A stretch of 64,000 nt of DNA from an uncultured Chthonomonadaceae bacterium (lineage in GTDB: Bacteria; Armatimonadota; Chthonomonadetes; Chthonomonadales; Chthonomonadaceae), in contig CAWFQB010000009.1 in NCBI GenBank assembly GCA_963817895.1, positions 32,001 to 96,000 of the forward strand, given 5' to 3'. Shown piece by piece: positions 42,442-63,095 of the stretch. The first letter of the stretch is position 1. Each line of letters begins with the position of its first letter. A program made the translations under genes and the position numbers. A model generated the notes under the pieces. It saw nothing but the letters and a program-made list of their open reading frames with translations. It had not been told where the DNA came from and ran no database searches.

Positions 42442-42458
42442 TCGGTAAGAAGGATTCT

Positions 42459-42794: not shown

Positions 42795-42880
42795 CAATTC
42801 AAGATTGCCTGTTAGAGGTGAGTGGGCGTACCATTCAACAAATTTTTCTCATTCAGCAAGTCATTCTAAAGGCGAATGCT

Positions 42881-43717
42881 ATGCGGCCTATATGGATAAT
42901 TGAAGCGGGCGTGTTCGGGCAGAACGCGGAACGGCTACGGGCGGAAGTGGAGCGGCAGGGCATGGAATGCTGGTCGGTACGACAGTACGCGCTTGCCGAC
43001 GATTCGATGGCGTCCCTGCGCGGCGAACCGCTGGCGCCTGACGATTGCGTGATTTGCTACAGCACGTTTCCGTTTGCTCAAGATGTGGAGGCGCGAGGAT
43101 GGAAATCGGGAGCGTGGTGCAGTTTCGATAATCTGGCATGTTCGATGTACTACGCTTATTTTGGGCGTTATCTGCTCAATCAGCAGTATACGCTGCTTCC
43201 CAGCCTTGAGGCCATGCGGCAACGGGAGTTTCTGTATCAGACATTTGGACGGAACGGACAGGTGTTCGCGCGTCCCAACGGCGTGGAGAAACTGTTTACG
43301 GGGCGGTGTGTTGCCGAAGAAGATTTTGCGGTTGCGCTTGCCCCGGCCCGCTATAACCCGACAACACAGGTTGTGATCGCCGCGCCGCAAACTATTGGGC
43401 GCGAGTGGCGGCTGGTGGTTGCGGAACACGCCATTGTTGCGGCAAGTCAGTACATGGAGCAGGGAAAGTTTGCCGTCGCGCCCGGTTGTCCCAAAAGCGT
43501 CCGCGAATTTGTACAAAACATGCTCAACGAAGTTCAATGGCGTCCCGACCCGATATTTATGGTGGATGTATGCGAGTCGAACGGAAATCTATATCTGCTG
43601 GAATTGAACAGTTTCAGTTGTTCAGGATTGTATCAGTGCGACATGGCCGAAGTCGTTGCCGCAGCAAGCGACATAGCCCAACAAACGCGCGTATCGAACT
43701 TTGTAGCATCCGCGTAA
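42881..43717 (+). CDS. ATP-grasp domain protein (DUF4343/R2K-like)
   Basis: FARP...KLFTG, REWRLVV, ASQY, FMVDVC, LLELNSFSCSGLY. Confidence 0.78.
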   Translation: MRPIWIIEAGVFGQNAERLRAEVERQGMECWSVRQYALADDSMASLRGEPLAPDDCVICYSTFPFAQDVEARGWKSGAWCSFDNLACSMYYAYFGRYLLNQQYTLLPSLEAMRQREFLYQTFGRNGQVFARPNGVEKLFTGRCVAEEDFAVALAPARYNPTTQVVIAAPQTIGREWRLVVAEHAIVAASQYMEQGKFAVAPGCPKSVREFVQNMLNEVQWRPDPIFMVDVCESNGNLYLLELNSFSCSGLYQCDMAEVVAAASDIAQQTRVSNFVASA

Positions 43718-43836
43718 TCTATGGATTGTTCTTTGCCTTTCTTCTGCTTTCTTTGCGGTCTTTGCGCCTTTGCGGTTTGCATCTGAATGTTTTCGTCTTA
43801 TTTTGCTTCTTTCGCGGTTAATTCAGGGAGAACTAC

Positions 43837-45001
43837 ATGCCGGAATTTTCTTTAAGTACCGATAACTGGGATTTGCATCAGCGCGCGGAACGGGACCGCC
43901 AGCGCCACAACGACAAGGTGAAAGAGGTCATCAAGCAGAATCTTGGCGACATCATCAGCCAGCAGGACATCATCACGGCGGATCAGGGCAAGATCGTCAA
44001 AATTCCCGTGCGCGGCCTGGAACTGCCCCGCATCCGCTTCGACAACGACGAGCGCGAACGGGTCGGGCAGGGCGGCGGCGGTTCCAAACCCGGCGACATC
44101 ATTGCCCGCGCCCCTTCGGATGAGGAGGGACAGGGGACGGGCAAGCAGGCGGGACAGGAACCGGGGACAGACTTTTACGAGGCCGAACTGACGCTGGAAG
44201 AGCTGACCAGCCTTGTGTTTGAAGACCTGCACCTGCCCAATCTGGAAGAGCGCGGCGTCAAGCAGATCATGTCGGAACACGCCGACTTCAACAGCATCAG
44301 CAAGCGCGGCATCACCAGCAATCTGGATCGCAAGCGGACGCTGCTGGAAGCCTATAAGCGCAATGCCCGCGAGGGCAAACCCGGCTGGACGGTGAAGAAC
44401 GAGGACCGCCGCTATAAAACGTGGGAAGTGGTGACGGAGCCGCAGCGCAACGCGGTTATCTTCGCCATGCGCGACGTGTCCGGCTCGATGGGCGAATTTG
44501 AAGCGTATATCTGCCGCTCGTTCTACTTCTGGATGCTGCGCTTCCTGCGCAAAAAATATTCCAGCGCGGAAATCGTGTTCATTACCTGCCACACGGAAGC
44601 CAAAGAGGTGGATGAAAACGCCTTTTTCGGACTGGGCGATTCGGGCGGCACGAAAATGAGCGAGGCGTACAAGCTCGCCATGCGGATCATTGACAAGCGC
44701 TACAATCCGCGCGAGTGGAACATCTACCCGTTCCTGTTTTCCGACGGCTACAACTGGGGCGATCAGGAATGCGTGGAGCTGATGAGGAAAATGGTGGAAA
44801 TCTCCAACCTCATCGGGTACGGCGAAATCGCCAACGACATCTGGAGCCAGTCGCCCTCTTTCGCGCCGCTCGGACAGGCGTATGAGGAGGCGTTCGCCGA
44901 ACGAACCGCGCGTCTGCCTGGTCAAAATCAACAACAAGGAAGACGTCTGGCCCGCCCTGCAAAAGTTCTTCAGCAAGCACCCGGAATTGCAGACTGCGTA
45001 A
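43837..45001 (+). CDS. yhbH: YhbH/YeaH (DUF444) vWA-like protein, frameshifted near 44900
   Basis: DRQRH, MRDVSGSMG, SGGT.MS, FSDGYN; the shifted frame gives the C-terminus KEDVWPALQKFF and ends at TAA 44999-45001. Confidence 0.9.
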
Positions 45002-45017
45002 GGAGACCGGTTCAGCC

Positions 45018-46471
45018 ATGAACCATAAAGACCGCGAGGAACTGGAAAAGTGGATTGACATTATCACGGAAAAGGCGGCGGAGTACGGGCTGGACTGCTA
45101 CCCGACGCACTTTGAAGTGGTTCCCGACCACGTTATCTACGAACTCGGCAGCTACAGCCTGCCCGCCCGCTTTTCGCACTGGACGTTCGGGCGCGATTAT
45201 CACCGCCAGAAGACCATGTACGATTACGGCATGGCGAAAATCTACGAGATCGTCTTCAATACCGATCCGTGCCAGGCGTTTCTGATGGACAGCAACAGCA
45301 TGCTGTCGCATAAGTTCGTCGTGGCGCATGTTTTGGGACACAACGACTTTTTCAAGAACAACAGTCTATTTCGAGCATACCGACCGGCGCATGATCGAAA
45401 AAGTCCGGCTGCACGGCAACCGTATCCGCAAGTACGAAGAAGAGTACGGCCCGATGGCAATCGAGGAGTTTCTGGATGAGGTAATCTCCATCGAGGAACA
45501 CTTCGATACCGGCCTGACAACCTCGTTCCGCCGCAAAACGCCCGAACAGCACGAAGCGGAACGCCTGAAGCCCTCCAAACCGACAACCGAATACGATGAC
45601 CTGTGGAACCTGTCCCAAACCCAGAGCGGGCCGGAGCAAACCGAAAGCGCGTAAGTTCCCGCCCGAACCCGACAAAGACCTGCTCGGTTTTTTGCGCGAC
45701 CACGCTCCCGAACTGGAAAAATGGCAGCGCGACATCCTCAACATGATCCGCGAGGAGATGATTTATTTCATCCCGCAAATGCGTACGAAGATAATTAACG
45801 AGGGTTGCGCCTCATTTTGGCATGAACGAATCATGACGAATCTGGATTTAACGCCGCAAGAGCATCTGGAATTTCGCCGCCTGCATGCGTCCGTGCTGTC
45901 GCCGGGTTCGCCCATGTCTATCAATCCGTACTATGTCGGCTATAACATTTTCCGCGACATCGAGCGGCGGTGGAATGGCGAAGAAGATAAAGAATTTCCT
46001 GAGAGCGACTGGCGGGGCGAGGAACTGCATCGTCCGAGCGGCGAAGGTATCAAGAAAATCTTTGAAGTGCGGCGGGATGAGGCCGACGTGACGTTCCTGC
46101 GCAAGTACCTGACGCAGGGATTGGTCAACAGGCTGGACATGTACACCTACAAGCAGGAAGAAGTGAACGGCGAAAACATGTGGGTGGTGCAGGAAACCGA
46201 CTGGCGCAAAGTGCGCGATACGCTTCTGGACGGCATGACCAACTTCGGTATTCCGGTCATTTATGTGGAGGACGCGGATTACAACCGGCATGGCGAATTG
46301 CTGCTGCGCCACGCTTATGACGGCAAACCCTTAGACCGGGATTACACCGCCCGCACCATGAAACACATCTTCAACATCTGGAAGCGGCCCGTACATTTGC
46401 AAACGGAATACGACGATGAAACGGTTTTGTTGTCGCACGATGGCGAGGATTTCACAGAAGAAATTCTTTAG
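45018..46471 (+). CDS. spoVR: SpoVR family protein, frameshifted near 45362 and 45640
   Basis: LPARFSHWTFG, KIYEIVFN, HVLGHNDFFKNN, YFIPQMRTKIINEGCASFWH, NPYYVG. Confidence 0.92.
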
Positions 46472-46507
46472 GGTATAGCCCAAAATCAGGGAAAGCGATG
46501 TGGGAGG

Positions 46508-46533
46508 CAGCGTCGAAATATTGGCAATGCAGC
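46508..46533. repeat. 26-bp partial third copy of the dispersed repeat end
   Basis: cagcgtcgaaatattggcaatgcagc is identical to 33380-33405. Confidence 0.75.
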
Positions 46534-46589
46534 TTTGCCACTATTTCGGTTGGAGTAGCAAGCCCTGTGGCTCACGCCGCGAGTGTTAC

Positions 46590-46621
46590 GCCTGTCAGGA
46601 CAGCCGACTGTCCTGACAGGC
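46590..46621. terminator. Hairpin between convergent genes
   Basis: 14-bp stem gcctgtcaggacag-ccga-ctgtcctgacaggc. Confidence 0.7.
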
Positions 46622-46632
46622 TGTTTTGGTTT

Positions 46633-47832
46633 CTAGCGCAGCGGGTGGTGAATATTCGCTTTTCGCGGCGTGGGTTTCACGGGTATGGGCATGGTCAGCG
46701 CTTTGAGATGCTTTGCCAGCGCGGACGCAGTTGCCAACGGACTGCCGATGCCTTCACTGGCGGGACGCCCGTTTTCTGCCGGGTACAGGTATTTGCCCTG
46801 CTCCGCGCCCGTCTTCTCCGTCTCCACGACAAGGGGATGAGCGCGGGCATACGCATCCTGCCGCGTTCCCGTCACCTGCCACGATACTTCCATGCCCGCC
46901 TTGCCGCCCGCGATCTCGAACCGGTTGCTCCGCATCTTCTGCGCCACAAACAGAGCCGGAGCCGCTTCGCCGATGGCGGTCAGCTGGTAGTGGAAGCGGG
47001 TGTTTTCCGCCTCGAACCAGTCGGGCATCTGCACGGTCGCCCGTCCGTCGCTGTCGAGGATTGTGTCGCCCGTATACAGGTTGAGTTGTTCGCTGCTTTC
47101 GATGCAGCTATGCGTGAGGTACTTGTGGGCGGGATCGAGCGGATGATCTATCTTGAAGTTCTTGGAGCCTGCGCTGAGAGTGCCGATCACCTGCACATTG
47201 CCCTGAAAGTATCCGCCGAAGCCCCCTCTGGAAGCCGTCTCGCCATATACGCCGACGCGCCCGTACCCCGCCGTTCCGAAGCCCGCATTACAATGCCCTT
47301 CCATCCCGACCGCATTGTAAAACGCGTTGTTGTTGAAGAAGTAGCCGGTGGGACTGACGTTGGAGTCGCCGATGCCGATGATGGCTGCGCCGCCGTTCGT
47401 GTTGGTTCCATACAAGCCTGCCCCGCTGCTGCCCGCGCTCGTGGTTCCATACACGCCGATGCCGCTGACGGACGCGCCGTACACGCCCGAACCGCTGGAA
47501 CCATCCCCAAACCCGTACACGCCCGTTGTGGTCGCTCCCGCATTGGCATAGCCGTACACGCCCGAACCGCCCGTGCTGGTGGCGTACAAGCCCACGCTGG
47601 CCGGATCCATACTGGCGGTACTGGCGAACACGCCATCGCTGACGTTGCCCGTGGTGGCGTCATTGGAAAACGCCGCGACAGCGCTGTTGACCGCCTCCGC
47701 ATCTCCGGCATACGGCAGGCTAAACCCGGTAGACTGGCTGATGGCGGGCTGATACGCCACGACCACACTCAGCAACGCCACACTCCCCGCCCACCGCAGC
47801 GGCAGGGGGCATTTTCGTATCCATGTCTTCAT
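46633..47832 (-). CDS. Secreted Gly-rich GVYG-repeat fibre-like protein with a C-terminal intramolecular-chaperone-like domain
   Basis: Signal peptide; repeated GSGVYG units; KNFKIDHPLDP..KYL.HS..ES...LPDWF-type C-terminal domain. Confidence 0.7.
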   Translation of the reverse strand: MKTWIRKCPLPLRWAGSVALLSVVVAYQPAISQSTGFSLPYAGDAEAVNSAVAAFSNDATTGNVSDGVFASTASMDPASVGLYATSTGGSGVYGYANAGATTTGVYGFGDGSSGSGVYGASVSGIGVYGTTSAGSSGAGLYGTNTNGGAAIIGIGDSNVSPTGYFFNNNAFYNAVGMEGHCNAGFGTAGYGRVGVYGETASRGGFGGYFQGNVQVIGTLSAGSKNFKIDHPLDPAHKYLTHSCIESSEQLNLYTGDTILDSDGRATVQMPDWFEAENTRFHYQLTAIGEAAPALFVAQKMRSNRFEIAGGKAGMEVSWQVTGTRQDAYARAHPLVVETEKTGAEQGKYLYPAENGRPASEGIGSPLATASALAKHLKALTMPIPVKPTPRKANIHHPLR

Positions 47833-47933
47833 CGCGCACTCTCCTTTTGGCAACGGCAGTAGCAAAGTAACTCGTCTGCGATAGCAGAGTAACCCATCAG
47901 AAATCATTGCCCGCTCAGGCAACACCTCCTGAA

Positions 47934-47969
47934 CACAGTATAACCGATGTTTCGTTACTACAGCGTTAC
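47934..47969 (-). promoter_or_regulatory. GTAACG-N5-GTAACG-N10-TATACT promoter, leftward
   Basis: agtata 47937-47942; cgttac 47953-47958 and 47964-47969. Confidence 0.75.
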
Positions 47970-48008
47970 AGAATATCCGTCCAGCGCGGATACGGGTCGC
48001 GCGGTTTT

Positions 48009-48065
48009 GTAACGTAATTGATGCATTTGGTAACGCTGTAGTAACGGAACCTCGGTTATACTGTG
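48009..48065 (+). promoter_or_regulatory. GTAACG-N5-GTAACG-N10-TATACT promoter, rightward, with a third upstream box
   Basis: gtaacg at 48009, 48030 and 48041; tatact 48057-48062. Confidence 0.75.
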
Positions 48066-48168
48066 CCTGACGCGGGAAGCGCGCCGAAGCGGAAGATTTG
48101 CCGCTTCCTGCGAACGCGCCCTGCGTCCCGATATGACAACAGATTATCCATATAAGGAGAACTCGATC

Positions 48169-50656
48169 ATGCGCGCCTTTTCTCGTATTCCCCTGCGCTC
48201 ACGCAGGCCTATTTCCCGTTGGCTCGTTTCCCTGTTGGGACTGCTGCTGTTCAGTCTGGCATGTGCCGCCTCACGAGCGAATACCTTCACCGTGACAACC
48301 CTCAACGACAGCGGCATGGGTTCGCTGCGGCAGGCGATTACCGATGCCAACGCCAATGCGGGAGCCGACAGCATTGTATTTGCCAGCGGGTTGACAGGAA
48401 CCATCGCGCTCACGTCTGCCCTGCCCAACCTGACGGATGATGTTACGCTGAACGGGCCGGGAGCCAAACTGCTGACGATTGCCCGCAGTTCGGCGTCGGG
48501 AACCCCGGCGTTCCGCATCTTCACCATTGACGCGGACACAGCTACGCCCCCGACAGTCAGTATCTCCGGCCTTACGTTGAGCAACGGCTTGATACAATAC
48601 ACAACAGGCGGCGAGAAATACTATGGTGGCGCGGTGCTGAGTAACAAAGCCAATGTGACGTTTACCGACTGCGCCCTCTCCGGCAACAGCATCTACTTGC
48701 CTTTCGCGCTTAATTATGGAACGAACCCTCCCGTTCCTCTCGGCTTCGGCGGCGGCGTCTACAACTATCAGGGAGCGATGACTCTGACGCGCTGCACAGT
48801 CAGCAACAATGTAGTCACCTCGTATGGCGGTCAGGCCAACGGCGGCGGCCTGTTCAACGATGCGGGAACGCTGACCCTGACCAACTGCACCCTCAGCGGC
48901 AATCAAGCCGTCAGTCAAGCTATCCTGATTCTAATACGCTGGTCATACCCCATGATTATGAACGGCAGCGCGTATGCTGGCGGTATCTGGAACGGCGGCG
49001 CGCTGACCCTGACCAACTGCACTTTCGCCGGTAACAGCGCTATCAACCACTGTTTGGGTTATGGCTGGGATGGATGGTTTTTTATTCCGTATGATACTGC
49101 GGGCAGCGGCAGTAGCGTGTACAATGCCGGCACAAGCGGCAGTACGCAAGTCACCCTCTACCAGACCATTCTGGCAAGCGGCAGCGCGGCAGGCGGCCAG
49201 AACGTTGTCAACGCGGCGGGCATCGTCCTCACCTCACTCGGCTACAACCTGAGCAATGACGCCACCGGCCCCAACGACGGCGCAACGGATCGTCTCAACA
49301 TGGATGCGAAACTCAGCCCGCTGAACTACTACGGCGGCCCAACGCCTACCTGCGTTCCGCTGTTGGGCAGTCCGGCTATTGACGCGGGCGACCTCAACTT
49401 CAATAACACTCCTCCCGCAACGGATCAGCGCGGCCAGCCTCGCGTTGTCAACGGACGGGTAGACATCGGCGCTGTGGAGCGTCAGGCAGGCGAGTTGGTT
49501 GCCCTCAACGATGCGTACTCCGTCAAGCATGACCATACGTCGCGAGTTGCCGCGTCCGGTGTGCTGACAAACGACACGGGAGTGGCTCCCCTGTCCGCCG
49601 TTCTCGTCGCGTCCGCCGCGCATGGCACCCTCCTGCTCAATGCCGACGGCTCGTTCGTGTACACGCCCAACGCCGGGTACGCATTAACCAGCAGCAGCAC
49701 AGACAGCTTCACCTACGCGGTACAGGACGGCATCGGCAGGACAAGCAACGTCGCCACTGTAACCATTACCATCATTGCCGACAATGCGCCTGTGTTGACC
49801 AACAGCCTGAGCGCCACCACAATGCCGGGGCAGGCGTGGAACTTCACGGCAACGGCAACGGACGCCGATCTGCCCGACGACGCGCTCACCTTTGCCCTTG
49901 TCAATGCCCCCTCCGGCATGACCATCAACGCGGCAACCGGCGCAATCGCGTGGACGCCACAGGCAGAAAACACAACAACGTTTAGCATCAAAGTCACGGA
50001 TCGTTATGGACTGAGCGCCCAGGCAGACGTTCACGCTCACCGTGTACGACAACCCGCCCGCGCTGACCAACAGCCTGAGCGCAACAGCAACGGCAGGGCA
50101 AGTCTGGAACCTCACGGCAACGGCAACGGACGCCGACCTGCCCAACGACGCGCTGACGTTTGCCCTTGTCAACGCCCCGGCTGGCATGACCATCAACGCG
50201 GCAACCGGCGTGATCGCGTGGACACACCGAACAGAAGGCGTGTTTACATTTGACATCAAGGTCACGGATCGGTTCGGCAAAAGCGACCAGAAGACGTTCA
50301 CGCTCACGGTACAAACCGACCCGAACGGCTCTGTCAGTCTAAGCATTACGAATGTCACGCTGCAACGCGGCGCGTACTACCCAAATACGGTGCTAGTCTT
50401 GTTCGATGTGGTCAACAACGGCACAGGGAGGGCGACAAACCTTGTCATTTCGCGCGCCACACTCGGCTCCGGGTTGTGCGTTCTCAACTCCACGCCGGTC
50501 AGTTTGGGGGCAGGAGGCAAGCAGACGTACGGGCTCACGTTCTTAGGGGTCGTGTGCCTGCCGAAAGTGGTATATCCGCTGCAAATACGCGGAACCTACC
50601 AGGCGCAGAATACCACGCAATCCCTGTTTTATGGCGGCGGCGTGATTGTGCCATAA
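48169..50656 (+). CDS. Secreted beta-helix / choice-of-anchor Q protein with Ig/cadherin-like repeats, frameshifted near 50025
   Basis: FTVTTLNDSGMGSLRQAI; GGPTPT..PLLGSPAIDAG...DQRG.PR...VDIGAVE; two tandem ATDAD.P.DALTFAL..AP.GMTI repeats; SD taaggag. Confidence 0.85.
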
Positions 50657-50749
50657 TCGCTTGCAGGCTTTTACTGCCGGATTCGCGTCACCGCAGCAGG
50701 ACGCGACTCAGCGTTATCGTGACGAACATCGCGTCAATCTAAATTTTTA

Positions 50750-50782
50750 GTAACGCAACGGTAACGCAAATCCGGTTATACT
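50750..50782 (+). promoter_or_regulatory. GTAACG-N5-GTAACG-N10-TATACT promoter upstream of the AAA_35-WD40 gene
   Basis: gtaacg at 50750 and 50761; tatact 50777-50782. Confidence 0.75.
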
Positions 50783-50913
50783 ATGCTCACGGGGCAAGCG
50801 CGCAGAGTCCGGATGCTCTGCCGCTTCCCCTGTCTCCTGCTGGTTATGCCCGTCAACGATGTCAGGAACTATCAACTATCAACCCTCAACTCTCAACTTC
50901 GACAGGAAGCCGG

Positions 50914-53900
50914 ATGGACGACCGCTTTTATATCACCGGGGGTACGCTGCCCCTGGACGCCGATTCGTATGTGACCCGCCGCGCCGATACGGAACTCTTC
51001 GAGTATCTGCGGCGGGGCGAGTTTTGCTACGTTCTCAACACGCGGCAGGTGGGCAAATCCTCGCTCATGGTGCGCGTGGCCCAGGCGCTGCGAACCGAGG
51101 GCGTTCGCGTCGTCCTGCTGGACCCGACCGCGATTGGCGTAAACGTCACCGTCGAGGAGTGGTACGACGGCCTGCTTACCATCATTGCGGAGCAACTGAG
51201 TCTGCGGCGGGAACTGGAAGACTTCTGGCTGGAGCATCCCCGTTTGGGGCCGATGCAGCGGTGGATGCAGGCGCTGGAACATGTCGCGCTGGCAGGTTCG
51301 CCGGAACCCCTGTGCATCTTCGTGGACGAGATCGACTCGGTGCAAAGCCTGCCGTTTTCCGCCGATGAGTTTTTCGGAGGCATCCGCGAGTGTTATAATC
51401 GCCGCGCCTACAATCCGGCCTTCCGGCGTCTCACCTTCTGCCTGCTCGGAGTCGCCGCGCCCGTTGACCTGATCGCCGACCCGCGCATCACGCCGTTCAA
51501 TATCGGCAGGCGCATTGAACTAACGGACTTCACGCCGGACGAAGCCGCGCCACTCGCAAGCGGATTAAACCACGGGGAACACGGGGAACACGGGGGAGGA
51601 GAGGGGGAGAAAGGAAGGGGGGAACAAAATCCCTATTCATCCTTCATCCTTCATCCTTCATCCTTTGCTTCTCTTCTCAACCGTATACTTTATTGGACAG
51701 GTGGGCATCCGTATTTGACGCAGAAATTGTGCAGCGCGTTGGCGCAAAGAAACGGGGTTCCGACAAATGCCGACGTGGATGCGGTTTGTGAGGAACTGTT
51801 TTTGAGTTGGCGGGCGCAGAAGACGGACGACAATCTCGTTTTTGCCCGCAGCCGCCTGCTGTATGAGGAAGCCAATCGCGCCGCGCTGCTGGATATGTAT
51901 GTGGGTATTCTGGACGGGCGGAAAATTCGGGACGATGCCACCAATCCCCTCCACAGCGTTTTGCGTTTGTCCGGCATTGCGCAGGCCGAGAATGGACTGC
52001 TGACGGTTCGCAACCGAATCTATGCCCATGTGTTCAACAAGCAATGGGCGCGCGACAACATGCCGGGCGAGGAACTGCGGCGGCAAAAACGCGCCTATCG
52101 CCTGGGCGTCTTGCGGACGGCGTTCGTCGCCGCCCTGCTGCTGGCCGTGATTTCTGGTTTTGGCGCGCGAGCTTACTTTGCGGAGCAAAACGCGCGGACA
52201 TCCGCAAAGGCGGCACGAACCTCCGAAAAGGCTGCTCAGACGGCGCAAGAACTGGCGCAAAAGGAGGCAGAAAATTCCAATCGGCTGCTGTATGCTACCC
52301 ATATGAACCTGCTGCAGCGCGCGTATCAGGACGAGGACATTGGACGCGCCAGAGACCTGCTGGCGGAAACAGAGGCATCGCCCTATCGCGGCTTTGAATG
52401 GAACTACTGGAACCGCCTGCTCAAGCGCGAACGCCTTGCCCTTCCCATCGCGGAGCCACAAAGCCTGCTCGTCTGGTCACGAGACGGGCGCTGGATCGTG
52501 ACACAAACGCAGTCCACACAGAATACGCCCCACCTCTCCCTCTGGGACGCCTGGACGGGAAAGCATGTTCGAACGCTTGCGGGGCGCGCGGATACTTTGC
52601 TCGGCGTAGCCTCGCCCATTGCGGCCAACTGTGTCGCGCTCGTGGATGCGCCGCAGGGGAAAACGGGAACCGTCCGTCTGGTCAACCCCGCGACGGGCGA
52701 AACTCGGCATATTCTGCCTGTTCGCGCCGGGGGAGCGACGCTGTCCGAGGATGGCAGGCGCGTGTTTACGCTGGAACCGCAGTCGGACAACTGCACTCTG
52801 TTCAAGGCATGGGATGTGGAGCGCGGAACGCTGTTGCTAACCACGACGGTTAGCGGCGTACAGCTTTTTGGGGCGTGGACACAAACGCCCACGATCCAGT
52901 CCACCCGCGACTCGCGCCTGCTGTGTTTCGGCAGCGCGATAACGCGCGAGAACAGTCCTTTCACGTTGCTGAACACGCAGACCGGCGAACGTCAGTGGAC
53001 GCCGCCGGGAGCCTACAACCGTTACGCTCTTTCTCCCACCGGGCGCTTTCTCGTGGCAACAGAACAGGATGGCTTTGCGGCTGGCGCGTTTCAACTGTGG
53101 GACTTGCAGGCAAAGCGGCAGGTCGCCACCCTGCGGGGCAAACAAGCGAATGCGCCCGCCCTGCGCCCGCTTCCTACATGCTGTTCACGCTTGGTTTCTC
53201 CCCGAACGAACGCTGGATAGTGGGCGCGGGAGAGGATACGGCGTTCAACGGTTGCGTCTGGATTTGGGAGCGGGCGACGGGCAGGGAAAAGCGCGTCCTG
53301 ACCGGGCAGCGGCGAACGTGGGAAGCGAAGTTTTCTTCCGATGGCCGCGTGCTGTTTTCCGCTTCGAGAGACAACCGCCTATTCACCTGGAACACGGCAA
53401 CGTGGCAAAAAACCGGCGTGTATTCCAATGACGGCACGAATTCGCCTGTTCTGTCTCCCGATGGCAACGAGTTTCTGACGGTAGACCATCGCGGCGCTGT
53501 CCTACCCCCTGCAAGCCCGCCGGATGGCGGACAAACTTGAGATCGCTCCATCGCTCAAGGCGTCCGTTATAAGATACCAGGGTTTTCAGCGTGACGAGAG
53601 GCATTTGCGATTTCGTGGCGCAAATACGACCCGGGGACAACCGGCAGCACCGCATCTACGATATGCAAACAGGAATGCAGCATCTTCTGCCCTTTGATCA
53701 CACGGCGTCTGCCATTACTGTGGGAAACGACGCGTACGCCGCCGCCGCCAAAAATTTTGAAAAGGAAACATGGGTGGAAATACGGGACGGATTCTACAGG
53801 CAAGTTCATCCGTTTGCTGCATGACCCCCTGCTCTACTGGTGGATACGCGCCGACGGACCGTGGTGGGCGGCAATCCTCTACGAGGGCAAAATCAGCCCC

Positions 53901-54651
53901 ATGAGGGAAAGCGCGTTCGCCGGTCTTGGCAAGCATCATCCGCAGACGGTCTTGTGGAATGTCGAAACCGGAAAAGAGGTCGTTCGCCTTGCTCATCTGC
54001 GTTACACGCCCTGGCAGGTCTGGCCCAAATGCGGGACGCGCAAACTGATCCTCGTAGACACCGAGAATATTGCCCACTTTTGGAACGTCAGCCCCTTGCG
54101 GGAGACTCTTTCAGGTGCCAATGGGATCGGAAACACAGATAAAACTGGAAAATTTCAGCGTTTCGCCGGACGGCAAATACGTCAGCGTTCTCATCGCAGA
54201 AAACCATTTCGACGGGCGGATTGAAGTCCATGATTTCGAGACGGGCCAACTCTGCGCGCAAGATGAACACGCCTTTTATTATCAGCCGAGCAACGCCTTT
54301 TCGCCGGATGGAAAGGTTCGCGTCTGGGTGGACACGCAGCAGAACGCGCATCTCATGGAGGGGGCGACGGGCAAAGAAGTGGGGCTGTTGAAATCTATCG
54401 GCGGAGATTTTTCGTATCTGGCCTTTTCGCCGGATGGAGCGCGCATCGTTACGGGCACAACCGTCGGAACGCTCAAGCTGTGGGATGTCAGGACGGGAGC
54501 GGAACTGATGGTTGCCCGGTTGCCCGGCGAATTGGGTCCGTTGTCCTTTTCACCGGATGGAACGCATCTGGGAGTGAACGCCTGGACCAGCGGAAAAATA
54601 CGCGCGTTCGTCTGGGAGGCTCCCCTGCCTGCCGCCGTCAAGAGCCAGTGA
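50914..54651 (+). CDS. AAA_35 (STAND-like) NTPase + TM helix + coiled coil + WD40 propellers, several frameshifts after ~53150
   Basis: YVTRRAD, RQVGKSSL, IFVDEID, TPFNIG, TGGHPYLTQ; TM TAFVAALLLAVISGFGA; FSPDG...LKLWD repeats. Confidence 0.85.
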
Positions 54652-54718
54652 AGACTACAGCGGAGTTCCCGACAGCGCGTTCCGTTGCGCGTACAACAAC
54701 GCGCAGCCAGGTGGGAGC

Positions 54719-55571
54719 CTAATGCAAGTCCCAGAGATACTTGTCCCTGTCGGTAATGCTGCCTCTCCACCCGTCCTTCACATCGCAGCCTGCGGCCAGC
54801 GCGCTCATGGTCAGAGCTTTCACGTGCCCGTCGCAGAACGCGACTGTGGCAAACTCGCCATGCCAGGGCCAGACAGCGCCATAGACGTTTGGGGCCGTCC
54901 GGCTGGCCGGGGTTCCAGCCGCCAACCCATGTACGCCAGTTTTCGCTATAGGGAACATCGTCCGTCCAGCATGGCATATCCACTACCAGGGTGCCTCCGC
55001 CGTAAGGCGCGCCATCAACCTTCCTGAACCATCGGGAATCCACCGCGAGAACAGTTTGGGCAGACGAGGTGATCCTGGCGATTGGCGTCGGCCTGCTGGA
55101 ATACACATCCGCATCATCCAGTATGATAGGACTGAGATACTGAAAGTTGAAACCGAAGTTGGTCTTAATTCCCAGATTGAAGTCCCGCTGCTGCGGCGTC
55201 GTGGGCGGCGGTAAGTCGCTGGCAGCGCGCTGCTCCTCGCTGTCAGGATCAGAGGGACAGGAATACACCTGCCTGTTCTTGAGGTAATCGCGCAGGGCCT
55301 GCCACATGATCATAGTAGGTGGACTATCAAAGGAGACATAGCCGCTGGCATCTAACGGGCGGGGGCTGGTATACAAAAGCGGCATCAACTCGTCGTTGTC
55401 CTGCTGATACTGCATAATGGCGAACGCCTGCTGCTTGAAATTGGACGCGCACGTCGTCTGACGCGCTTTGTCGCGCGACTGGGCAAAGACAGGAAAAAGC
55501 AGGGCCGCCAGAATAGAGATAATGGCGATAACAACGAGCAGTTCGATCAAAGTAAAGGCGCGCGGCTGCAT
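54719..55571 (-). CDS. DUF1559 prepilin-type N-terminal cleavage/methylation protein with H-X9-DG, frameshifted near 54895
   Basis: [40 protein letters not shown] in the 54719..54958 frame. Confidence 0.9.
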
Positions 55572-55842
55572 AAATTATCCATTGAGGATGGTTCAGGCCA
55601 GCGTCAATGGATTACTCATTGGAACAAAGCGCACCTGTCCTCGTTTTTATTTCCTTTGTTTTTGCCCACTATTCTTAGTATACCTACCAACGCTCAATTC
55701 ACATTGCATCTTCACAGAAAATTTTTTGGAAAAGACAGAAAAACAGCCCGCGCATTTCCTCCGGTGTAAAGAACAAGTCGGTTCTTCTGTATACGCCTGT
55801 CCTGGAAATCAAAGTATATGCCGGCGTATAGAGGTTTCATTT

Positions 55843-56529
55843 TCACGGCCCAGGCAGGTACGTGATTTTGGAAAGGTTTTCCAGTCTTGTCCATTTGACA
55901 TGTGAGTTGAAGAATGCCATTTCGATGCCGCCGTTGTGACGGTTGATGCACAGCCTGCCCGAATCCAACTGACTAAATGGTCTTTCTACGCCAGAGGTAT
56001 TGCTACCGGTTTGCGTGTTGATGAAGCCGGGGCAGGCATTATTGCCATTGGGGATCCACGCGTCAATCCAGATGGCGTCGGCAAGGAGCATCGTTACGGA
56101 GGGTTGCGGCACCTGCGCGAGTGTGCAGACACCTTCCGGGCGCGCGCTACAATATAGCCAGCCGTTATAGGCGTAACTGCCGGAATAGCGAAAGCCATTC
56201 CATGCCTGCGACGCGCTCCCCATTTGTGGATCGTTGGAACGGGGTGGAGCATCAGGGCAAAGATGGACTTGCTTGTTTTTGATATAAGCCTCAAACGCGA
56301 CATTCCACAAATAGAGTTCGTTGATGACGCGATAATCCAGCAGTTGTTCGTCGTAGTCCTGCGAGTACATCGTTGCGCCGTAGGATAGTTGTTTGAGGTT
56401 GCTGGCGCAGCTAGTCTGCCTGGCTTTCTCGCGCGCTTGCGCAAAGACCGGGAACAAAATGGCTGCGAGTATCGCAATGATGGCGATGACGACGAGCAGT
56501 TCAATCAAGGTAAATCCGGCGCGTTTCAT
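55843..56529 (-). CDS. DUF1559 prepilin-type protein with a variant H-X9-NS motif
   Basis: [51 protein letters not shown] aggagg. Confidence 0.92.
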
Positions 56530-56656
56530 GACAATCCTCCTTTGCAAAGCAGGAATTGAAATACACAGCGGCGAACTGTGCGTTATACCGGGTTGAGGTC
56601 CGCAGAAATCATGCGACTTCTGCGGACCTCTCACTGTCAGCAAGAAAAGACAGCGT

Positions 56657-57670
56657 TTAGCAAGCCCGGACTTTGCGCGTTTTGCGGCGCAGAAAGCCCG
56701 CTCCCGCCACGCTCAGGCCGACAAGCAGGGCGACGCTGCCGGGTTCGGGAACGACCGTCACCATAAATGCGTGAACATATCCGTCCGCGCCGAGGTAGCT
56801 TCCCACAACCTGATTGCTTTCACTGACCCCGAATCCCATTAGAAGATTACGGTTATCGGGCGCATCAATCGGGGTAAAAACGCTGTTCTGGTAAAAGAAG
56901 GCATAGTCGCGATTGCCCAGAGTATATTCGCCGAGAACAAGGCCGCTGGAATTAACGCCGAAATAGGAGGGGTCCGCGCCGCCGGGTATATCGGGAATCT
57001 CGGAATATATCCCGCTGCTGGCGTTATAAATGGCCCCGTGCCGCGCGTTGTTCTGGTCGCGATAGTTGACAAGGACATCGCCATTGGGCGCGAAATTGCG
57101 AGCGACGGTGTTGTAGCCGAGAACCTTGCTGGGCAAATCGGTAAAGGTTTGCGTGGCGGGATCATAAACGGACGCGAAACCAAGATTGTTGGAGTCCTGC
57201 CATGCCACCGCGAATTTGCCATTGTCCCCAATGCCGTTGTAACTTGTGGAAATAGAATTCGGATGTTGCGGCAGCAGGCTTCTCACGCCGCCGCTTGTGT
57301 GCACAAAAGGCTCATCCGTTGTGAAGGTGCTGTTGAAGTACTCCCCGTAGTAGGCGCCGCTGCTGTTGACCGGCCCGATGTAATTGTAAAAGCCGGAAGC
57401 GGTTCTCGGATCATCATGTCGCGTATAAACGCCATTGGACAAAATGTAGCCGTGTTGGATGTCCGTCGAGTAAACATACTGGCTGAGGGAGATATTTGCG
57501 CCCGACGAACTGATGCCATTTCCGTAAATGTCGTTTGGATCGTTCGGATCGTGGAGAACATCAATGTTGGTGTAAGACAAAGACAACTGCGCGTCGGCGG
57601 GACGGGCGGCAAACAGGGCAAGCACCGACAGGGCGATCAGGCCGGCTTGCAGGAAACGAGTGCGAGGCAT
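56657..57670 (-). CDS. PEP-CTERM beta-propeller-like surface protein
   Basis: Signal peptide; G.N..G...G.Y repeats; [13 protein letters not shown] + TM + RRK. Confidence 0.9.
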
Positions 57671-57750
57671 GGTGTTCTCCTTTTGATTTGGGTGTGCAGG
57701 TGTTCGGGTGTTCAGGTGTTCAGGCGGGACACTTTACTTTTCCCTGATGC

Positions 57751-57803
57751 AGTATAGGTAATTTTGCGTTACCGTTGCATTACTTGCGTTACCGTTGCGT
57801 TAC
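57751..57803 (-). promoter_or_regulatory. Duplicated GTAACG box array with TATACT, driving the PEP-CTERM gene and divergent from the regulator
   Basis: agtata 57751-57756; cgttac 57767, cattac 57778, cgttac 57787 and 57798. Confidence 0.75.
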
Positions 57804-57850
57804 CAATTCTGGTGTTTGTACTGGCAATCGTCTATTTTTGTTGTAAGGAA

Positions 57851-59509
57851 ATGCTTTTGGCTTCTACTGTTCTTACCTTACGCCTGTTTGGGAATTGGGA
57901 GGCGCGTCTTGGGAACGCGCCGATTGTGGGATTGCATCTGCGCGAAGGCGAGCGCCTGCTGGCATACCTGACCCTGCATCACGACGCGATTGTCTCGTAC
58001 AGGGAGTTGGCGCAACAGTTCTGGCCTGCCGAAGCCACCGTTCACCCGGAATGGGCAGGCGGCAGTTTCCCCTCCACGCGGCAGGCTATTTATGCCCTGC
58101 GCCGCGCCCTGGGCGAACACGCGCCCCGCCTTGTCAGCGTCGGAAAAGGCATGATCCGCTTTGATCTGGAAGGCGCGGATGTAGACTACGCCGCCTTTCA
58201 GGAATTGATCGCGCAGGATAACCGCGAAGCGTGGAGGCAAGCGCAGGCCCTGTATCGCGGCCCTTTGCTGGAAGGCTGGACAGAAAAATGGGCGCAGGAA
58301 GCCCGCGTTCGCTGCCAGCGTTCCTATGAGCGCATAGTCGCGGCTCTGGCGGCTGCGCCGATTGAGCGGGAAGAAAAGGAGAAAAGGAGAAAAGGAGAAG
58401 AGGAGAGGGAAGATACAAGATACAAGATACAAGATACAAGACCGAACACCGAACACCGAACGCCAACCACCAGCCACCAACCACCAACCACCCTCCTCGA
58501 ATCCAACGGCGGCGCGGTTCCGCTGGATTTGCCGTTTTACATTGCGCGGGAAACGGATGGAGGATTTCAGCAGGCGATCCAACGACGCGACAGCATCGTT
58601 CTGGTCAAGGGGACGCGGCAGATCGGCAAAACATCGCTTCTGGCGCGGGGATTGCAGGGGGCGAGACAGGATGGGGCGCGAGTGATATTCACGGATTTTT
58701 CCAGTTTGCCCTCCGAGTTGCTGACATCGCTGGACGCGCTGTATCGCATACTGGCGCAGGACATCGCCTATCAGTTGGATTTGGAGGCCGACCCGGAAGC
58801 GGATTGGAATACGCGCCGCAGTCCCAATCGTAATTTGGAGCGGTTTATCAGCGATATGGCGCTGCCGGAAGTCGGGGCGTCGCTGGTGTGGGGCATGGAT
58901 GAAGTGGATACGCTGTTCCAGTTTCCATTCGGAACCGAAGTCTTTCGCCTGTTCCGCTCGTGGCACAACCGCCGCGCCCTAGACCCGCGTGGCTCCTGGT
59001 CACGGCTCACGCTGGTAATGGCGTATGCGACGGAAGCGCATCTGTTCATTCAGGACGTCAATCAATCGCCCTTCAACGTGGGAACCCGTTTGGCGCTAGA
59101 GGACTTTACGTTCGCGCAGGTAACTGAACTCAACGTTCGCTATGGCAAGCCCCTGCCGGACGATGCTGCTGTACAGCGATTGTACGCGCTGCTCAACGGG
59201 CATCCGTACCTCACCCGCCGCGCCCTCTCGGAGATGCAGTCACGTCCTGTAACCATAGACACGCTGGAAGCGCAGGCGGGGCGCAACGAAGGCGTTTTCG
59301 GCGATCATCTGCGCCGCCTGTTCACGTCCCTCACTCAGAACTCGGAACTTACCGACGTGGTTCGCGGTTTCCTGACAGGACCGTTCTGCGCGTCCGAAGA
59401 CGCTTTTTACCGACTGCGCAGCGCGGGGCTGCTCGCGGGCGAAATGCCGGAAGAGTGCCATTGGCGCTGTCCCCTCTACGCCGCGTACTTCAAGCGATAT
59501 TTGAAGTGA
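57851..59509 (+). CDS. SARP-like regulator: wHTH + truncated BTAD + AAA_35 NTPase
   Basis: LRLFG, LLAYLTL...RELAQQFWP...RQAIYALRRALG, DVDYAAF, LYRGPLLEG..EKW; RQIGKTSL, MDEVD, SPFNVG, NGHPYLT. Confidence 0.85.
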   Translation: MLLASTVLTLRLFGNWEARLGNAPIVGLHLREGERLLAYLTLHHDAIVSYRELAQQFWPAEATVHPEWAGGSFPSTRQAIYALRRALGEHAPRLVSVGKGMIRFDLEGADVDYAAFQELIAQDNREAWRQAQALYRGPLLEGWTEKWAQEARVRCQRSYERIVAALAAAPIEREEKEKRRKGEEEREDTRYKIQDTRPNTEHRTPTTSHQPPTTLLESNGGAVPLDLPFYIARETDGGFQQAIQRRDSIVLVKGTRQIGKTSLLARGLQGARQDGARVIFTDFSSLPSELLTSLDALYRILAQDIAYQLDLEADPEADWNTRRSPNRNLERFISDMALPEVGASLVWGMDEVDTLFQFPFGTEVFRLFRSWHNRRALDPRGSWSRLTLVMAYATEAHLFIQDVNQSPFNVGTRLALEDFTFAQVTELNVRYGKPLPDDAAVQRLYALLNGHPYLTRRALSEMQSRPVTIDTLEAQAGRNEGVFGDHLRRLFTSLTQNSELTDVVRGFLTGPFCASEDAFYRLRSAGLLAGEMPEECHWRCPLYAAYFKRYLK

Positions 59510-59512
59510 ATT

Positions 59513-59666
59513 GTAACTATTCACCACCAAGACACGAAGAACACCAAGAAGAACGCGAGGAAAGCAATTGTGATATTGCAGGAGAAAACGAAATTGTCTC
59601 CGGCTCTGTGCCTTTTCGGTTGCTTTTTCTCTTGGTGTTCTTCGTGTCTTGGTGGTGAATAGTTAC
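59513..59666. repeat. 37-bp perfect inverted repeat (MITE-like or bidirectional terminator)
   Basis: gtaactattcaccaccaagacacgaagaacaccaaga (59513-59549) is the reverse complement of 59630-59666. Confidence 0.8.
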
Positions 59667-59668
59667 CG

Positions 59669-61655
59669 TTACTGCCTTTTCATAACTGAACGCCAGTTTT
59701 CGTCAAAGAAACCGGCGAGTTCCACATCTTTGGCTCGGTCGTCGTTGAAGGCAGCAGGGTCCATGCGGATAACGGCATAGTCGGGAAGGTGCGGGTATTG
59801 CAGGGCGTTGCTGCCGTTCCAGTCGGCGCGGCTGAAGGTGAAGCCGGTGTTCAGAACGACATAGCGTTTCGGATTTTCGGGGTTGGGGAAGATGAGCAGG
59901 GGCAGGTGGTCGCTTGCGGTGAAGGATTTCCCCGCTATGGTGATGGTATCTTTTGTCCATTTCAGCGGCAGCTTCGACAGCAGGCGGCGTAAAAAGCTGT
60001 TAGAACCCGGATCGCCAAATAAGTAGAGATTATGGTTGGCAATATCGGCTGCGCTCAGTTTCGTATCGGTCGTTTCCGGCAGTGTGGCGCGGCAATACAT
60101 CCCCCACCCCTCCCGAAAACGTTCCATTTCCTGTTTGCTCCACCCCTCCGCGCTCGCGTTCCATGCTGTTCCCGTTCCCGCCACCGCCAGAACCGGGCCG
60201 AACAGGGCGTCGTCTATCGGGACCGGACAGGCCGGGCGCTTTGCGCAGGCCCTTCGGTTCGCCCCATTTCCAATACGCGCCCGTTTTCATCAAATCAAGC
60301 GCGGCAAGCGTTGCTTTCGGAGTTTTCAGCGTTTCGCCGTCCACGACAACAACCCCGTTCGCTTTCCAGTCGGCGGGTGTCAAACGTAATGCGCTGACGT
60401 TGCGCGTGGTCACGTCCAGATGATCGGGCGCGGTTCGTTTCGCGTGGACTTCCGCCCGCTCCCAGTGCCGCTCCAAGCCCTCTAAATGTACCCATTTACA
60501 TTCCGGCCAGCGCAGGGTATACGTGACGAAATCCACATCGGGCGCGTCCGGTTCGCGGCGAACGGGCGCAAACGCGGCCAGCATGCTTTGCAGGGTGTGC
60601 TTCTCATAGGCATGGCCGGTTTTCGGGCCGAGGAAATCCTGATACGGCGCGTTCTCCTGCTTTAAGGCTTCATACATCAGCAGGTGCTGCGCGTGAAACG
60701 TGTCGGTTTCCCCCACATACGGCAGCAGTGGCAGGTTTTTGGCGTTCGCGGCGTAATCAATGGGATCGTACAGGCAGAGCAATCGCGTTTGCCAATCGGG
60801 CAGGGTTCGGGTGGTTTTGGTATAGCGGATGGTTTCCACAAACCCCGCGCCCGGACTCATCGCCGCCCACATACCGGGATGTTGTAGCCCGATATGCCAC
60901 GCGCCATGCCCGCCCATCGAAAAACCGCGCAACGCAACCCGGTTCTCATCAACCGGAAAACGCCTTTTGCAATCCGCGAGGGCCTCGAACACATCCTGCT
61001 CGCCCGCGAACCGCCAGCCGTTGTTGCCGCGCCCGTAGGGGTACAGCGCGAGGTTGGCGAGCGGTTCCGCGCCGAAATTACCCCTTACCCATCCCTTGCC
61101 GCCAATGAAACTCAGTTCGTTGAGATTGCCGCCCCTGCCGTGCAGAAATATGTCAAGCCGCATGGGTTTCGGCGCGGCAAAATCGTACCCGGCGGGAATA
61201 AACGCCTGATACGGCTGAACCGAGCCATCCACCTGCGAACGATAGCCAAGAACGACCACACCCGCCTGCCGCATCCAGGGCGCTTTGCCTTCACGCAGGG
61301 CCGCCAATCGGCTTTCTCCCTCGCTTAAACACGTTCTCGCCTGCGCCACGTTTTGTTTGGAAAAGAAAAGGTCTTGCCGCAGATTACGGTCAACAGCGTC
61401 CAGAAAAATCTCCACATTCGGCAGCATCTGTTTGGTAAGTTTGTCCGCCGCGCCCTTTTGCGCCCGCAAACTTGTTATGCCCTGCCGCAAATGGTCGCGC
61501 CCCTGCGCCAGTTCCTGCCGCTCCTCCGCCGTCAGCGTAACCCGCTCCTTTTGAAACTGCGCGTTCGCGGGCAACCCTGCCATTGTTCCCATTACGATGG
61601 CAAACACGGCTACTATTCTCAATGCGGGTTTGGTTCGCAACGTTTTCTCCTTCAA
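59669..61655 (-). CDS. Secreted alpha/beta-hydrolase (prolyl oligopeptidase/esterase-like), frameshifted near 60220
   Basis: YRSQVDGSVQPY, FLHGRG, GFSMGG nucleophile elbow; C-terminal NLYLFGDPGSN...PNPENPKRYVVLN...AGFFDENW. Confidence 0.85.
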
Positions 61656-61764: not shown

Positions 61765-63095
61765 CATAAGTGTCGAAAGCCCGCCTGCTTGCCTTATTTT
61801 GGCTAATCATCGGGTACAAATGGCGTTGCGCACAGCACCTGGCGCGTCCATACACGGCAGTCTTCGGCCAACCAGAACTTGACGGAACGCCAACCCCGAT
61901 CAATGCCCGTCTGCTGTTTGTACCAGATCAGCAGCAAGGCGGCAATCAGGCTCATATAGATCATGATGGTGATGCCGTTCTCGTTGCGACTGAGCAGGTG
62001 ACTATACGAGAGGTGTTGCTTGACAAACTTGAAGAACACCTCGATGTCCCAACGGGAACGGTACAGGGCCGGGATTTCAGCAAAAGTATACAGACCTGCG
62101 TGTTGCCCGTCCTCAGACACGGGCAAGTTGGTCATCAACACGAGCGGCAGCCACAGGTTGCGCCGTTTGTCAAAGCGCAGACCGTGTACCAGCACCAGCG
62201 GCATCCTGTCCCAACGCGCTTGTTCCTCCTGCGTTTCTTGATTGTTGCCAAACACCGCCTGCTGCACCTGTACCAGCACAAAGTCCGGTTCCTGCGCTTG
62301 GGGCGCTTGTGTGGGCAGACACTGTGGGGCGGCTTGCCACAGCGTTTGCACTTGCTGAAAGGCTTGTTGGCTGTGCGGCGTCAGCCAGAAACTGCCCGCC
62401 TGATGCAGCCGCGGCAAACGGGAGCGGTCATGGCAGCCTTTGTCGAATATCCAGAAATCGCCGGGTTGGGTATGCGCCAGCATGGTATTGCCCAGCGCCA
62501 CACAATCGCTCTTGTCGGACTTGGATTTGCACACCTTGAGTAACTGTGGCAGGCCCTCCTGGGAGAGTTCCACGACGCTCTTGACATGGCGCAGCGTCTT
62601 GTCAGGATTGGTCGTCTGATTGGACAAACCAAACGTCAGGAGCTTGGCCGACAGCGTGACCGTGGTGGCGTCAATGCGGCGCAAACGCAACGTCTGTGCC
62701 GTTGCCGGGGTGATCTTGGGAGACAACTTGGCGTACAGGTCGCCAAACAGGTCGCCAAAATAGGCCGGAGGCAACTTTGCCAGACACTTGCCCCAACTGC
62801 TATGGTCGCTACGACTGCTATGGTCGCTACGACAGCCCGTTTGCTGCTGATACGTTTCCTCCAGCACCCGCTGGCTCAACTCAGGATGGTTGAGCAGCCC
62901 ATTGAGCAGGCACAAGAATACGACGGGGCCGGGCAACCGTACATTAGGGTGTACATCTATTTCATAGTGACACGCCAGTTGTTCCAAGCGTGTCAGGGGT
63001 ACAAAGTCAAAGAGTTTTTTCAGAGCAATCATGCTCTGATTTTACAACCAACGGGGCGTACTCGCAAGTGAACGAGCGGGCTTTCGACACTTATG
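61765..63095 (-). mobile_element. IS4-family insertion sequence, 1331 bp
   Basis: Perfect 20-bp TIRs cataagtgtcgaaagcccgc (61765-61784 and 63076-63095); 10-bp target duplication cagcaagcag (61755-61764 and 63096-63105). Confidence 0.93.
61803..63032 (-). CDS. IS4-family DDE transposase
   Basis: RIDAT, IFDKG and the YREK signature YRSRWDIEVFFKFVKQ. Confidence 0.93.
   Translation of the reverse strand: MIALKKLFDFVPLTRLEQLACHYEIDVHPNVRLPGPVVFLCLLNGLLNHPELSQRVLEETYQQQTGCRSDHSSRSDHSSWGKCLAKLPPAYFGDLFGDLYAKLSPKITPATAQTLRLRRIDATTVTLSAKLLTFGLSNQTTNPDKTLRHVKSVVELSQEGLPQLLKVCKSKSDKSDCVALGNTMLAHTQPGDFWIFDKGCHDRSRLPRLHQAGSFWLTPHSQQAFQQVQTLWQAAPQCLPTQAPQAQEPDFVLVQVQQAVFGNNQETQEEQARWDRMPLVLVHGLRFDKRRNLWLPLVLMTNLPVSEDGQHAGLYTFAEIPALYRSRWDIEVFFKFVKQHLSYSHLLSRNENGITIMIYMSLIAALLLIWYKQQTGIDRGWRSVKFWLAEDCRVWTRQVLCATPFVPDD

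Follow-up and report, generated by a model that had tools for sequence, protein, structure and literature searches.

Phased direct repeats at promoters without a -35 element as predicted binding sites of a SARP-like, AAA_35-linked activator in a Chthonomonadaceae genome

Which protein reads a short direct repeat that precedes the -10 element of four neighboring promoters in the genome of an uncultured Chthonomonadaceae bacterium of the Armatimonadota? These promoters lie in a window of 64,000 nucleotides (contig CAWFQB010000009.1 of assembly GCA_963817895.1, here C9; positions are those of the window), close to a gene on the forward strand (57857-59509) that codes for a predicted regulator with an OmpR-type winged helix. 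All four repeats proved genuine and confined to this locus, and the comparisons set out below indicate that they are likely the sites of this regulator, a SARP-like activator predicted to bind them. The label SARP-like is used because the protein behaves like a SARP in geometry and fold, yet fails the feature of a full BTAD.

An earlier note on this DNA had described four promoters of the geometry GTAACG-N5-GTAACG-N10-TATACT, and a pattern search of the window recovered all of them on the strands and at the positions that it gave. Site 1 (47937-47969, reverse strand) combines GTAACG at 47969-47964 and 47958-47953 with TATACT at 47942-47937 after 10 nt, and faces the open reading frame (ORF) 47832-46633. 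Site 2 (48009-48062, forward strand) has GTAACG at 48030 and 48041, 10 nt and TATACT at 48057-48062, with a further GTAACG at 48009-48014 (offset 32 from the proximal box), and faces the ORF at 48169. Site 3 (50719-50782, forward strand) has GTAACG at 50750 and 50761, 10 nt and TATACT at 50777-50782, with a GTGACG at 50719-50724 (offset 42), and faces a gene for an AAA_35 ATPase with a transmembrane helix and WD40 propellers. Site 4 (57751-57803, reverse strand) carries boxes at 57803, 57792, 57783 (GTAATG, the distal box of the pair) and 57772, followed by 10 nt and TATACT at 57756-57751; it is divergent from the regulator gene, 54-106 nt upstream of its start, and faces a PEP-CTERM gene. In each case, a gene start lies 70-130 nt downstream. 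The 11-bp period that the note had assigned to the repeats holds at the boxes proximal to the -10, but not for the array at 57767-57803, where the offsets from the proximal box are 0, 11, 20, and 31 (spacing 11-9-11). The reported lack of a -35 consensus is borne out: the best hexamers at spacers of 16-18 match only 1, 1, 2, and 3 of the six TTGACA positions at sites 1-4, and none of the six matches of a sigma-70 search of 46000-60000 is any of the four sites.

In the assembly (7,479,055 bp, 14 contigs, 81% complete), the strict pattern occurs four times, in each instance facing a gene and within 10 kb of the regulator gene. The two-box part (GTAACG-N5-GTAACG) and the box with its -10 (GTAACG-N10-TATACT) are likewise found four times each genome-wide, all in the same 10-kb stretch. 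No match to the pattern, whether exact or with a single mismatch, arose in 100 dinucleotide shuffles of the window. Site 2 repeats site 1 in inverted orientation, with 34 of 36 bp identical, and sites 3 and 4 have 20 identical bp in common. Being partly copies of each other, the four sites are not four independent events; hence, the shuffle null overstates the surprise, and it is the comparative test of other loci that carries the case. In the parts of the window matched by contigs of run X1, which leave sites 1 and 2 outside, a contig 98% identical places none of 12 listed differences (16 in all) inside site 4. Downstream of sites 2 and 3, the leaders (48077-48108 and 50796-50828) both carry AAGCGCGC...TGCCGCTTCC, which has one more match genome-wide; this common text possibly reflects common descent or a leader hairpin.

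For the comparative test, a fixed definition (a GTNACG box, a second box at 11 or 20-22, and a -10 within one mismatch) was applied to 46 non-redundant foreign loci, 29 of them close (N-terminal domain at least 43% identical) and 17 distant (27-41%). Left out were L112, L114, L104, and L110, as duplicates or near-duplicates of L095, L099, L046, and L045, and L091-L094, L096, L098, L100, and L101, whose contigs were already present as G-handle loci. At a spacer of 10 nt, the close loci (360 kb) hold 28 sites, distributed over 21 of the 29 loci, and at spacers 6-9 and 11-15 they hold 0, 0, 1, 0, 0, 2, 0, 0, and 1. Within the genome itself, a sequence-blind scan of 22 loci for a 6-mer repeated with period 11, N10 and a -10 found perfect repeats at three only, namely the window locus and the paralogues C5:510920 and C10:71274. 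The two paralogues carry a GTCACG version with two sites each, one of which is divergent from the regulator as in the window. A relaxed definition gives 12 sites in the genome, eight of them at these three SARP-AAA_35 loci, and 1-9 sites at other spacers. The genome has 31 SARP-profile matches (no other lies within 58 kb on either side of the regulator), and 8 of 27 perfect period-11 repeats located 10 nt before a -10 fall within 3 kb of such a match, a zone that makes up 3.3% of the genome. For periods 9, 10, 12, and 13 the same proximity is seen for 0 of 12, 1 of 37, 2 of 19, and 0 of 7.

The 36 sites thus collected (28 foreign, 8 own) are conserved in the boxes and the -10 only, the spacer from -20 to -13 carrying 0.02-0.5 bits per position. 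The full motif is the 8-mer GTNACG(C/A)A, which ends 8 bp before the -10 (the hexamer ends 10 nt before it). With the -10 hexamer placed at -12, the boxes begin at -39 and -28 and the box T falls at -38 and -27. These values are those of SARP sites, in which direct repeats 11 or 22 bp apart cover the -35 region and the 3' repeat lies 8 bp from the -10 (PMC10936776, PMC4393881); T at -38 and -27 of the afs box is critical for AfsR (PMC10936776). A box is present at the exact offset of 11 in 27 of the 36 sites, and others lie at 20-22, 30-32, and 42. Offsets not used for selection show the same order: exact boxes occur at 30-32 in 21 sites and at 51-53 in 8. Only two extra boxes in the whole set are off phase, the phasing following steps of about 10.5 bp. 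Arrays usually hold three or more phased boxes; SARP sites with three repeats are also known (PMC10972967). The note had read the array at 57767-57803 as a possible sign that the regulator controls its own gene. Because extra boxes occur generally, including before partner or pilin-like genes kilobases away from a regulator start, they are part of the array rather than a mark of autoregulation, which is unsupported; the regulator's own promoter was not located.

The regulator is a protein of 550 amino acids that combines the winged helix with a three-helix BTAD remnant, a low-complexity linker, and a C-terminal AAA_35 P-loop ATPase (248 bits) bearing the motifs GTRQIGKT and DEVD. Its start is more likely the TTG at 57857 than the ATG at 57851 given in the note, the TTG lying 7 nt behind AAGGA as in the C5 paralogue. 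The three BTAD helices extend up to residue 168, where a 47-residue linker begins, and helices 4-7 are absent. An AlphaFold model of the N-terminal domain has a pLDDT of 90.6, and all six matches at E of 0.001 or below in a fold search with it are EmbR or AfsR (TM-score 0.65-0.67), with PhoB and GlnR domains as the next matches; a sequence profile against the PDB has AfsR as its sole match (E 0.009). The domain search found neither NB-ARC nor tetratricopeptide repeats (TPR), no hydrophobic helix was found in the protein, and it ends with the AAA domain, with no sensor domain of its own. No receiver domain was found in it, nor a histidine kinase among the 21 window ORFs scanned. Close relatives are encoded in Chthonomonadaceae, Capsulimonas, and other Armatimonadota. 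A three-helix BTAD is also seen in 16 other regulators of 46 rows, duplicates included, and strict sites accompany such regulators at L044, L045, L103, L105, L107, L115, and C5; many homologues have a longer BTAD, and those with a full or a short BTAD have the same box geometry. That the sites belong to the adjacent regulator, as the note had proposed, is supported by their co-occurrence with its kin at two paralogous and 21 of 29 foreign loci, by the EmbR/AfsR fold match, and by the location of the genome's 22 matches to the profile PF00486, none of which is on this contig. Protein linkers and spacers at 58360-58490, 57691-57724, and near 51640 and 50870 carry short, low-complexity tandem repeats that match many run X1 contigs; comparable linker text is also seen in the C5 paralogue.

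The variation of the box itself offers a possible view of its recognition. Base 3 differs between loci within one genome (GTAACG versus GTCACG), and in 24 loci with a strict site (the distant L123 being left out) it was compared with residue 81 of the recognition helix, which sits in STRQAI-Y-ALR and is aligned with AfsR Ser91. The 10 loci with Tyr or Phe at this position never have C at base 3 of the proximal box, 13 loci with Arg, His, Ser, or Ala have C only, and one is mixed. Residue 81 might therefore set base 3 (Tyr/Phe: A, G, or T; Arg/His/Ser/Ala: C), and in so doing keep this circuit separate from its GTCACG paralogues.

The gene behind site 3 (50914-54651, forward strand) codes for a predicted partner with an AAA_35 domain, one hydrophobic helix near residues 397-415, and WD40 propellers. 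It is spread over several reading frames in this assembly; in a run X1 contig 97% identical, indels at 53154, 53489, 53611, 53795, and 54108 track the changes of frame, and of 11 homologous partners examined, 10 consist of one uninterrupted ORF (1,048-1,522 amino acids). The breaks are therefore probably errors of the assembly. The single hydrophobic helix follows a basic stretch here and in 10 of 11 homologous partners, an arrangement that, going by hydropathy alone, would place the ATPase in the cytoplasm and the propellers outside the membrane. A partner-type AAA_35 gene is present in 36 of the 40 foreign loci with both N-terminal domain and AAA, and in three of the four loci that lack it the contig is short or ends there. 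Of the 10 regulator-type AAA_35 genes of this genome, 9 have a partner-type gene no more than about 7 kb away, including cyclase-fused ones: three regulator-type genes have a cyclase-like N-terminus in place of the winged helix (the cyclase family is assigned by Pfam only in the foreign L115 protein). Both proteins have Walker A and B motifs. All 29 partners compared retain the Walker B Glu, but 9 of 35 regulators have lost it, a difference suggestive of an asymmetric pair. Such an arrangement corresponds to that of a modular pair of sensor and output. At L115:14941, a box-bearing promoter stands directly before a cyclase-TIR-AAA_35 gene, and the activator may thus switch on a further output of that sensor.

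These features can be combined into a proposed mechanism. One winged helix would sit on each box, head to tail on one face of the DNA, and would, by the model of AfsR, recruit the sigma-70 RNA polymerase. Recruitment would be mostly by contacts of the winged helix, because the BTAD helices that hold the C-terminal domain of the polymerase alpha subunit (alpha-CTD) in AfsR are missing. Promoters without a -35, those of exported surface proteins and that of the partner AAA_35-WD40 gene, would thereby be activated. The C-terminal AAA_35 domain may keep the regulator off until its nucleotide state or oligomerization changes, the multi-box arrays favoring an oligomer, and the trigger might be contact with the AAA_35 domain of the membrane-anchored WD40 partner. 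We consider it somewhat more probable than its opposite that the partner is a sensor coupled to the regulator, in which case site 3 would provide positive feedback on the sensor gene. The larger picture is tentative: a kinase-free, two-component-like system with a membrane AAA_35-WD40 sensor, ATPase-to-ATPase contact, interchangeable AAA_35 outputs, feedback, and residue-based insulation. If the outputs are indeed interchangeable, they would be either a minimal-BTAD SARP-like activator or a cyclase/TIR enzyme, with regulons that are readable from sequence.

Several observations weigh against this interpretation. The case is built on sequence and predicted structure. The winged helix gives no PF00486 match, and the BTAD (PF03704 positions 25-78 of 146) scores 17 bits, below the cut-off of 22.1. 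The helices of AfsR that contact the alpha-CTD are missing, and activation must therefore differ from it in detail. Strict sites are lacking at 8 of the 29 close and 16 of the 17 distant loci, and at the genome's own paralogues C5:152488 and C1:698551; many of these loci, both paralogues among them, have GTCAC[AG] repeats near the regulator but no -10 at N10. The residue-81/base-3 trait, mapped on a quick AAA tree, shows only 3-5 changes on the trees. Starred branches yield a single independent pair, and all branches together 3-4, which is not significant, and this makes the residue-81 code a lead rather than a result. Moreover, the base-contacting Arg92 of AfsR aligns with Ala82, and residue 81 with the phosphate-contacting Ser91 (contacts from PMC10936776, section 7). 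The coupling to the partner is deduced from gene neighborhood and the membrane topology from hydropathy. A complex prediction for the two AAA_35 domains with ATP (score 0.01, mark 0.32) speaks neither for nor against their contact.

Other explanations account for parts of these data. The regulator could bind the boxes and chiefly repress these promoters or itself, most of its BTAD being gone. The absence of helices 4-7 and the position of site 4 just ahead of the regulator start would suit such a role, which is nevertheless improbable: there is no -35, a 10-nt spacer fixed across genera is needless for a repressor, homologues with a full or a short BTAD have the same geometry, and extra boxes occur far from regulator starts too. 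Among regulators of the OmpR/PhoB/GlnR type, known sites include a GTnAC-n6-GTnAC box and a Pho box placed 10 nt ahead of the -10. Period and position here are those of these families, the genome codes for seven strong PF00486 response regulators, and PhoB and GlnR domains come next in the fold search. Yet none of the 22 PF00486 matches lies on this contig, eight of the 12 relaxed-definition sites are at three SARP-AAA_35 loci, and base 3 varies by locus in one genome, so that a regulator of this type encoded elsewhere is very improbable. Least credible is that the repeats represent duplicated promoter DNA without a function, or a promoter of an extracytoplasmic function (ECF) sigma factor with GTAAC as -35 and CGGTT as -10. 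The sites are indeed of common descent, with 34 of 36 bp identical in one pair and 20 identical bp in the other, and CGGT precedes TATACT in three of the four. We reject both versions, since the 10-nt spacer is specific across loci, conservation in 36 sites from many genera is limited to boxes and -10, CGGTT is missing at site 4 and in most homologues, and the genome contains GTAAC-N17/18-CGGTT 23 times.

A further alternative leaves the SARP-like activator in place and concerns its trigger. The regulator could be a one-component switch like AfsR or MalT, its own AAA domain reading ATP or a ligand, with the AAA_35-WD40 gene merely a co-inherited target. AfsR is activated in vitro by ATP binding alone (PMC10936776, section 9); the regulator and partner genes here, separated by about 7 kb, have different promoters. 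However, no sensor domain is built into the regulator, whose last domain is the AAA domain, and the partner stands beside 36 of 40 homologues and close to nearly all regulator-type AAA_35 genes of this genome (9 of 10 within about 7 kb). We regard such a switch as unlikely, if much less so than the alternatives weighed above.

If the SARP-like activator reads the boxes, its regulon is local and, by the predicted gene products, consists mostly of exported proteins. The predicted target of site 1 (46633-47832, reverse strand) is Gly-rich with a signal-peptide-like start; it has no Pfam or NCBIfam family, falls in unnamed Atlas clusters at 0.95-0.97, and has no homology with the target at L044, which is collagen-like. 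That of site 2 (48169-50656, forward strand) is exported and contains choice-of-anchor Q, Ig, and cadherin-like repeats; a frame change divides it into 48169-50253 and 50042-50656. Site 4 faces a PEP-CTERM protein (56657-57670, reverse strand; TIGR02595, 18.9 bits against a cut-off of 16) with a weak HAF repeat, followed by a predicted second gene of the operon, of the prepilin N-methylation/DUF1559 type (55843-56529, reverse strand); the same order of PEP-CTERM and pilin-like genes is seen beside the regulators at C10:71274 and L056. Among the 28 foreign sites, seven stand directly before an AAA_35-WD40 gene. For the other 21, with the target taken as the longest ORF within 450 nt, there are seven PEP-CTERM, three prepilin/H-X9-DG, one HAF-repeat, one pro-kumamolisin, and one cyclase-TIR-AAA_35 protein, one TolB-like propeller and one collagen-like protein (both below cut-off), five without a family at cut-off, and one doubtful ORF. 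Elsewhere in the window, a second prepilin/DUF1559-type gene (54282-55571, reverse strand) has a box-less sigma-70-like match upstream (55840-55813), and run X1 differs by one base at 54899. Genes for PrkA, DUF444, and SpoVR occupy 39100-46471, the last two with what look like frame changes (such changes are common in the assembly), and 61803-63698 holds two DDE transposase genes (PF01609 and the ISAzo13-type PF07592).

Related repeats occur beyond the strict sites. GTCAC[AG]-N5-GTCAC[AG] is found near the regulator start, without TANNNT at N10, at L058, L059, L120, L122, L126, L127, L129, L130, and L134 (C5:152488), and several distant homologues with such repeats read CGT or TGT at N10; these loci possibly use another sigma factor or another spacer. 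A clade with wHTH-BTAD-TIR-like-AAA_35 (winged helix-turn-helix, wHTH) regulators (L047-L050) has GTGACG or CTGACG boxes with a period of 21 bp, at offsets 21 and 42 and none at 11. Two other families share the N5 and N10 geometry. GTAGGA repeats are present at L136 (C3:143436), L137 (C5:644710), and L138 (C6:348477), the copy at L137 being divergent from a wHTH-NB-ARC-TPR gene, which suggests a dispersed regulon of an AfsR-type protein. G(C/T)TAAT repeats are present at L139 (C10:37159), L140 (C12:70198), and L141 (C3:576248), the last directly behind a wHTH-AAA gene.

The promoter grammar itself is textbook SARP. The setting is less so, as an Armatimonadota genome with 31 SARP-profile matches contrasts with a 2024 review in which SARPs are confined to actinobacteria and the medium class is listed with NB-ARC (PMC10972967). 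Through the boxes, the activity of paired AAA_35 ATPases could be followed directly at the level of transcription. This bears on whether one STAND-like protein in the membrane can switch on another, whether a BTAD of three helices suffices for activation, and whether a single residue can change specificity. Our literature search, in which subscription journals were thinly covered, found no paper on this module and no functional paper on paired AAA_35 ATPases.

The closest known counterpart is AfsR with the afs box at afsS of Streptomyces coelicolor (PDB 8HVR, 8K60; PMC10936776), which has the same winged helix and BTAD fold, 11-bp direct repeats over the -35 region with the 3' repeat 8 bp from the -10 and key T at -38 and -27, and a C-terminal P-loop ATPase predicted to gate activity. 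Unlike AfsR, the present regulator has AAA_35 in place of NB-ARC, no TPR sensor, and only three helices of a BTAD that comprises seven in AfsR (residues 120-270). The AfsR residues that contact the alpha-CTD, together with most of those seating sigma region 4, fall in the part missing here, whereas the four whose mutation lowered activation in the first test (R59, D71, E76, and R173) are in the region retained (PMC10936776, section 8). Other differences are the base-reading residues, arrays of usually at least three boxes, a linked membrane AAA_35-WD40 gene, surface-protein targets, and the Armatimonadota host. Like the small and medium SARPs (ActII-ORF4, DnrI, OtcR, CdaR; PMC10972967, PMC4393881) and EmbR (PDB 2FEZ, 2FF4), it would be a cluster-situated activator of few target promoters with two or three direct repeats, and its 550 amino acids are in the range of the medium class; unlike them, it has no biosynthetic cluster, and its ATPase is of a family other than the medium-class NB-ARC.

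On the side of the ATPases, AAA_35 may correspond to the Npun2340/2341 family of the MNS clade of STAND NTPases. That family is made up of paired P-loop NTPase genes, with a variable N-terminal domain in one and C-terminal repeats in the other, a layout that fits the pairs of wHTH-, cyclase-, or TIR-AAA_35 with AAA_35-WD40 seen here. Section 7 of PMC8195603 treats this STAND family as part of predicted conflict systems and makes no mention there of BTAD or wHTH. Finally, as in PhoB/OmpR systems (PDB 1GXP), a winged helix on head-to-tail 11-bp repeats is combined with a membrane partner and a cytoplasmic activator; in contrast to them, with no receiver domain or histidine kinase found, the coupling module would be the ATPase domain.

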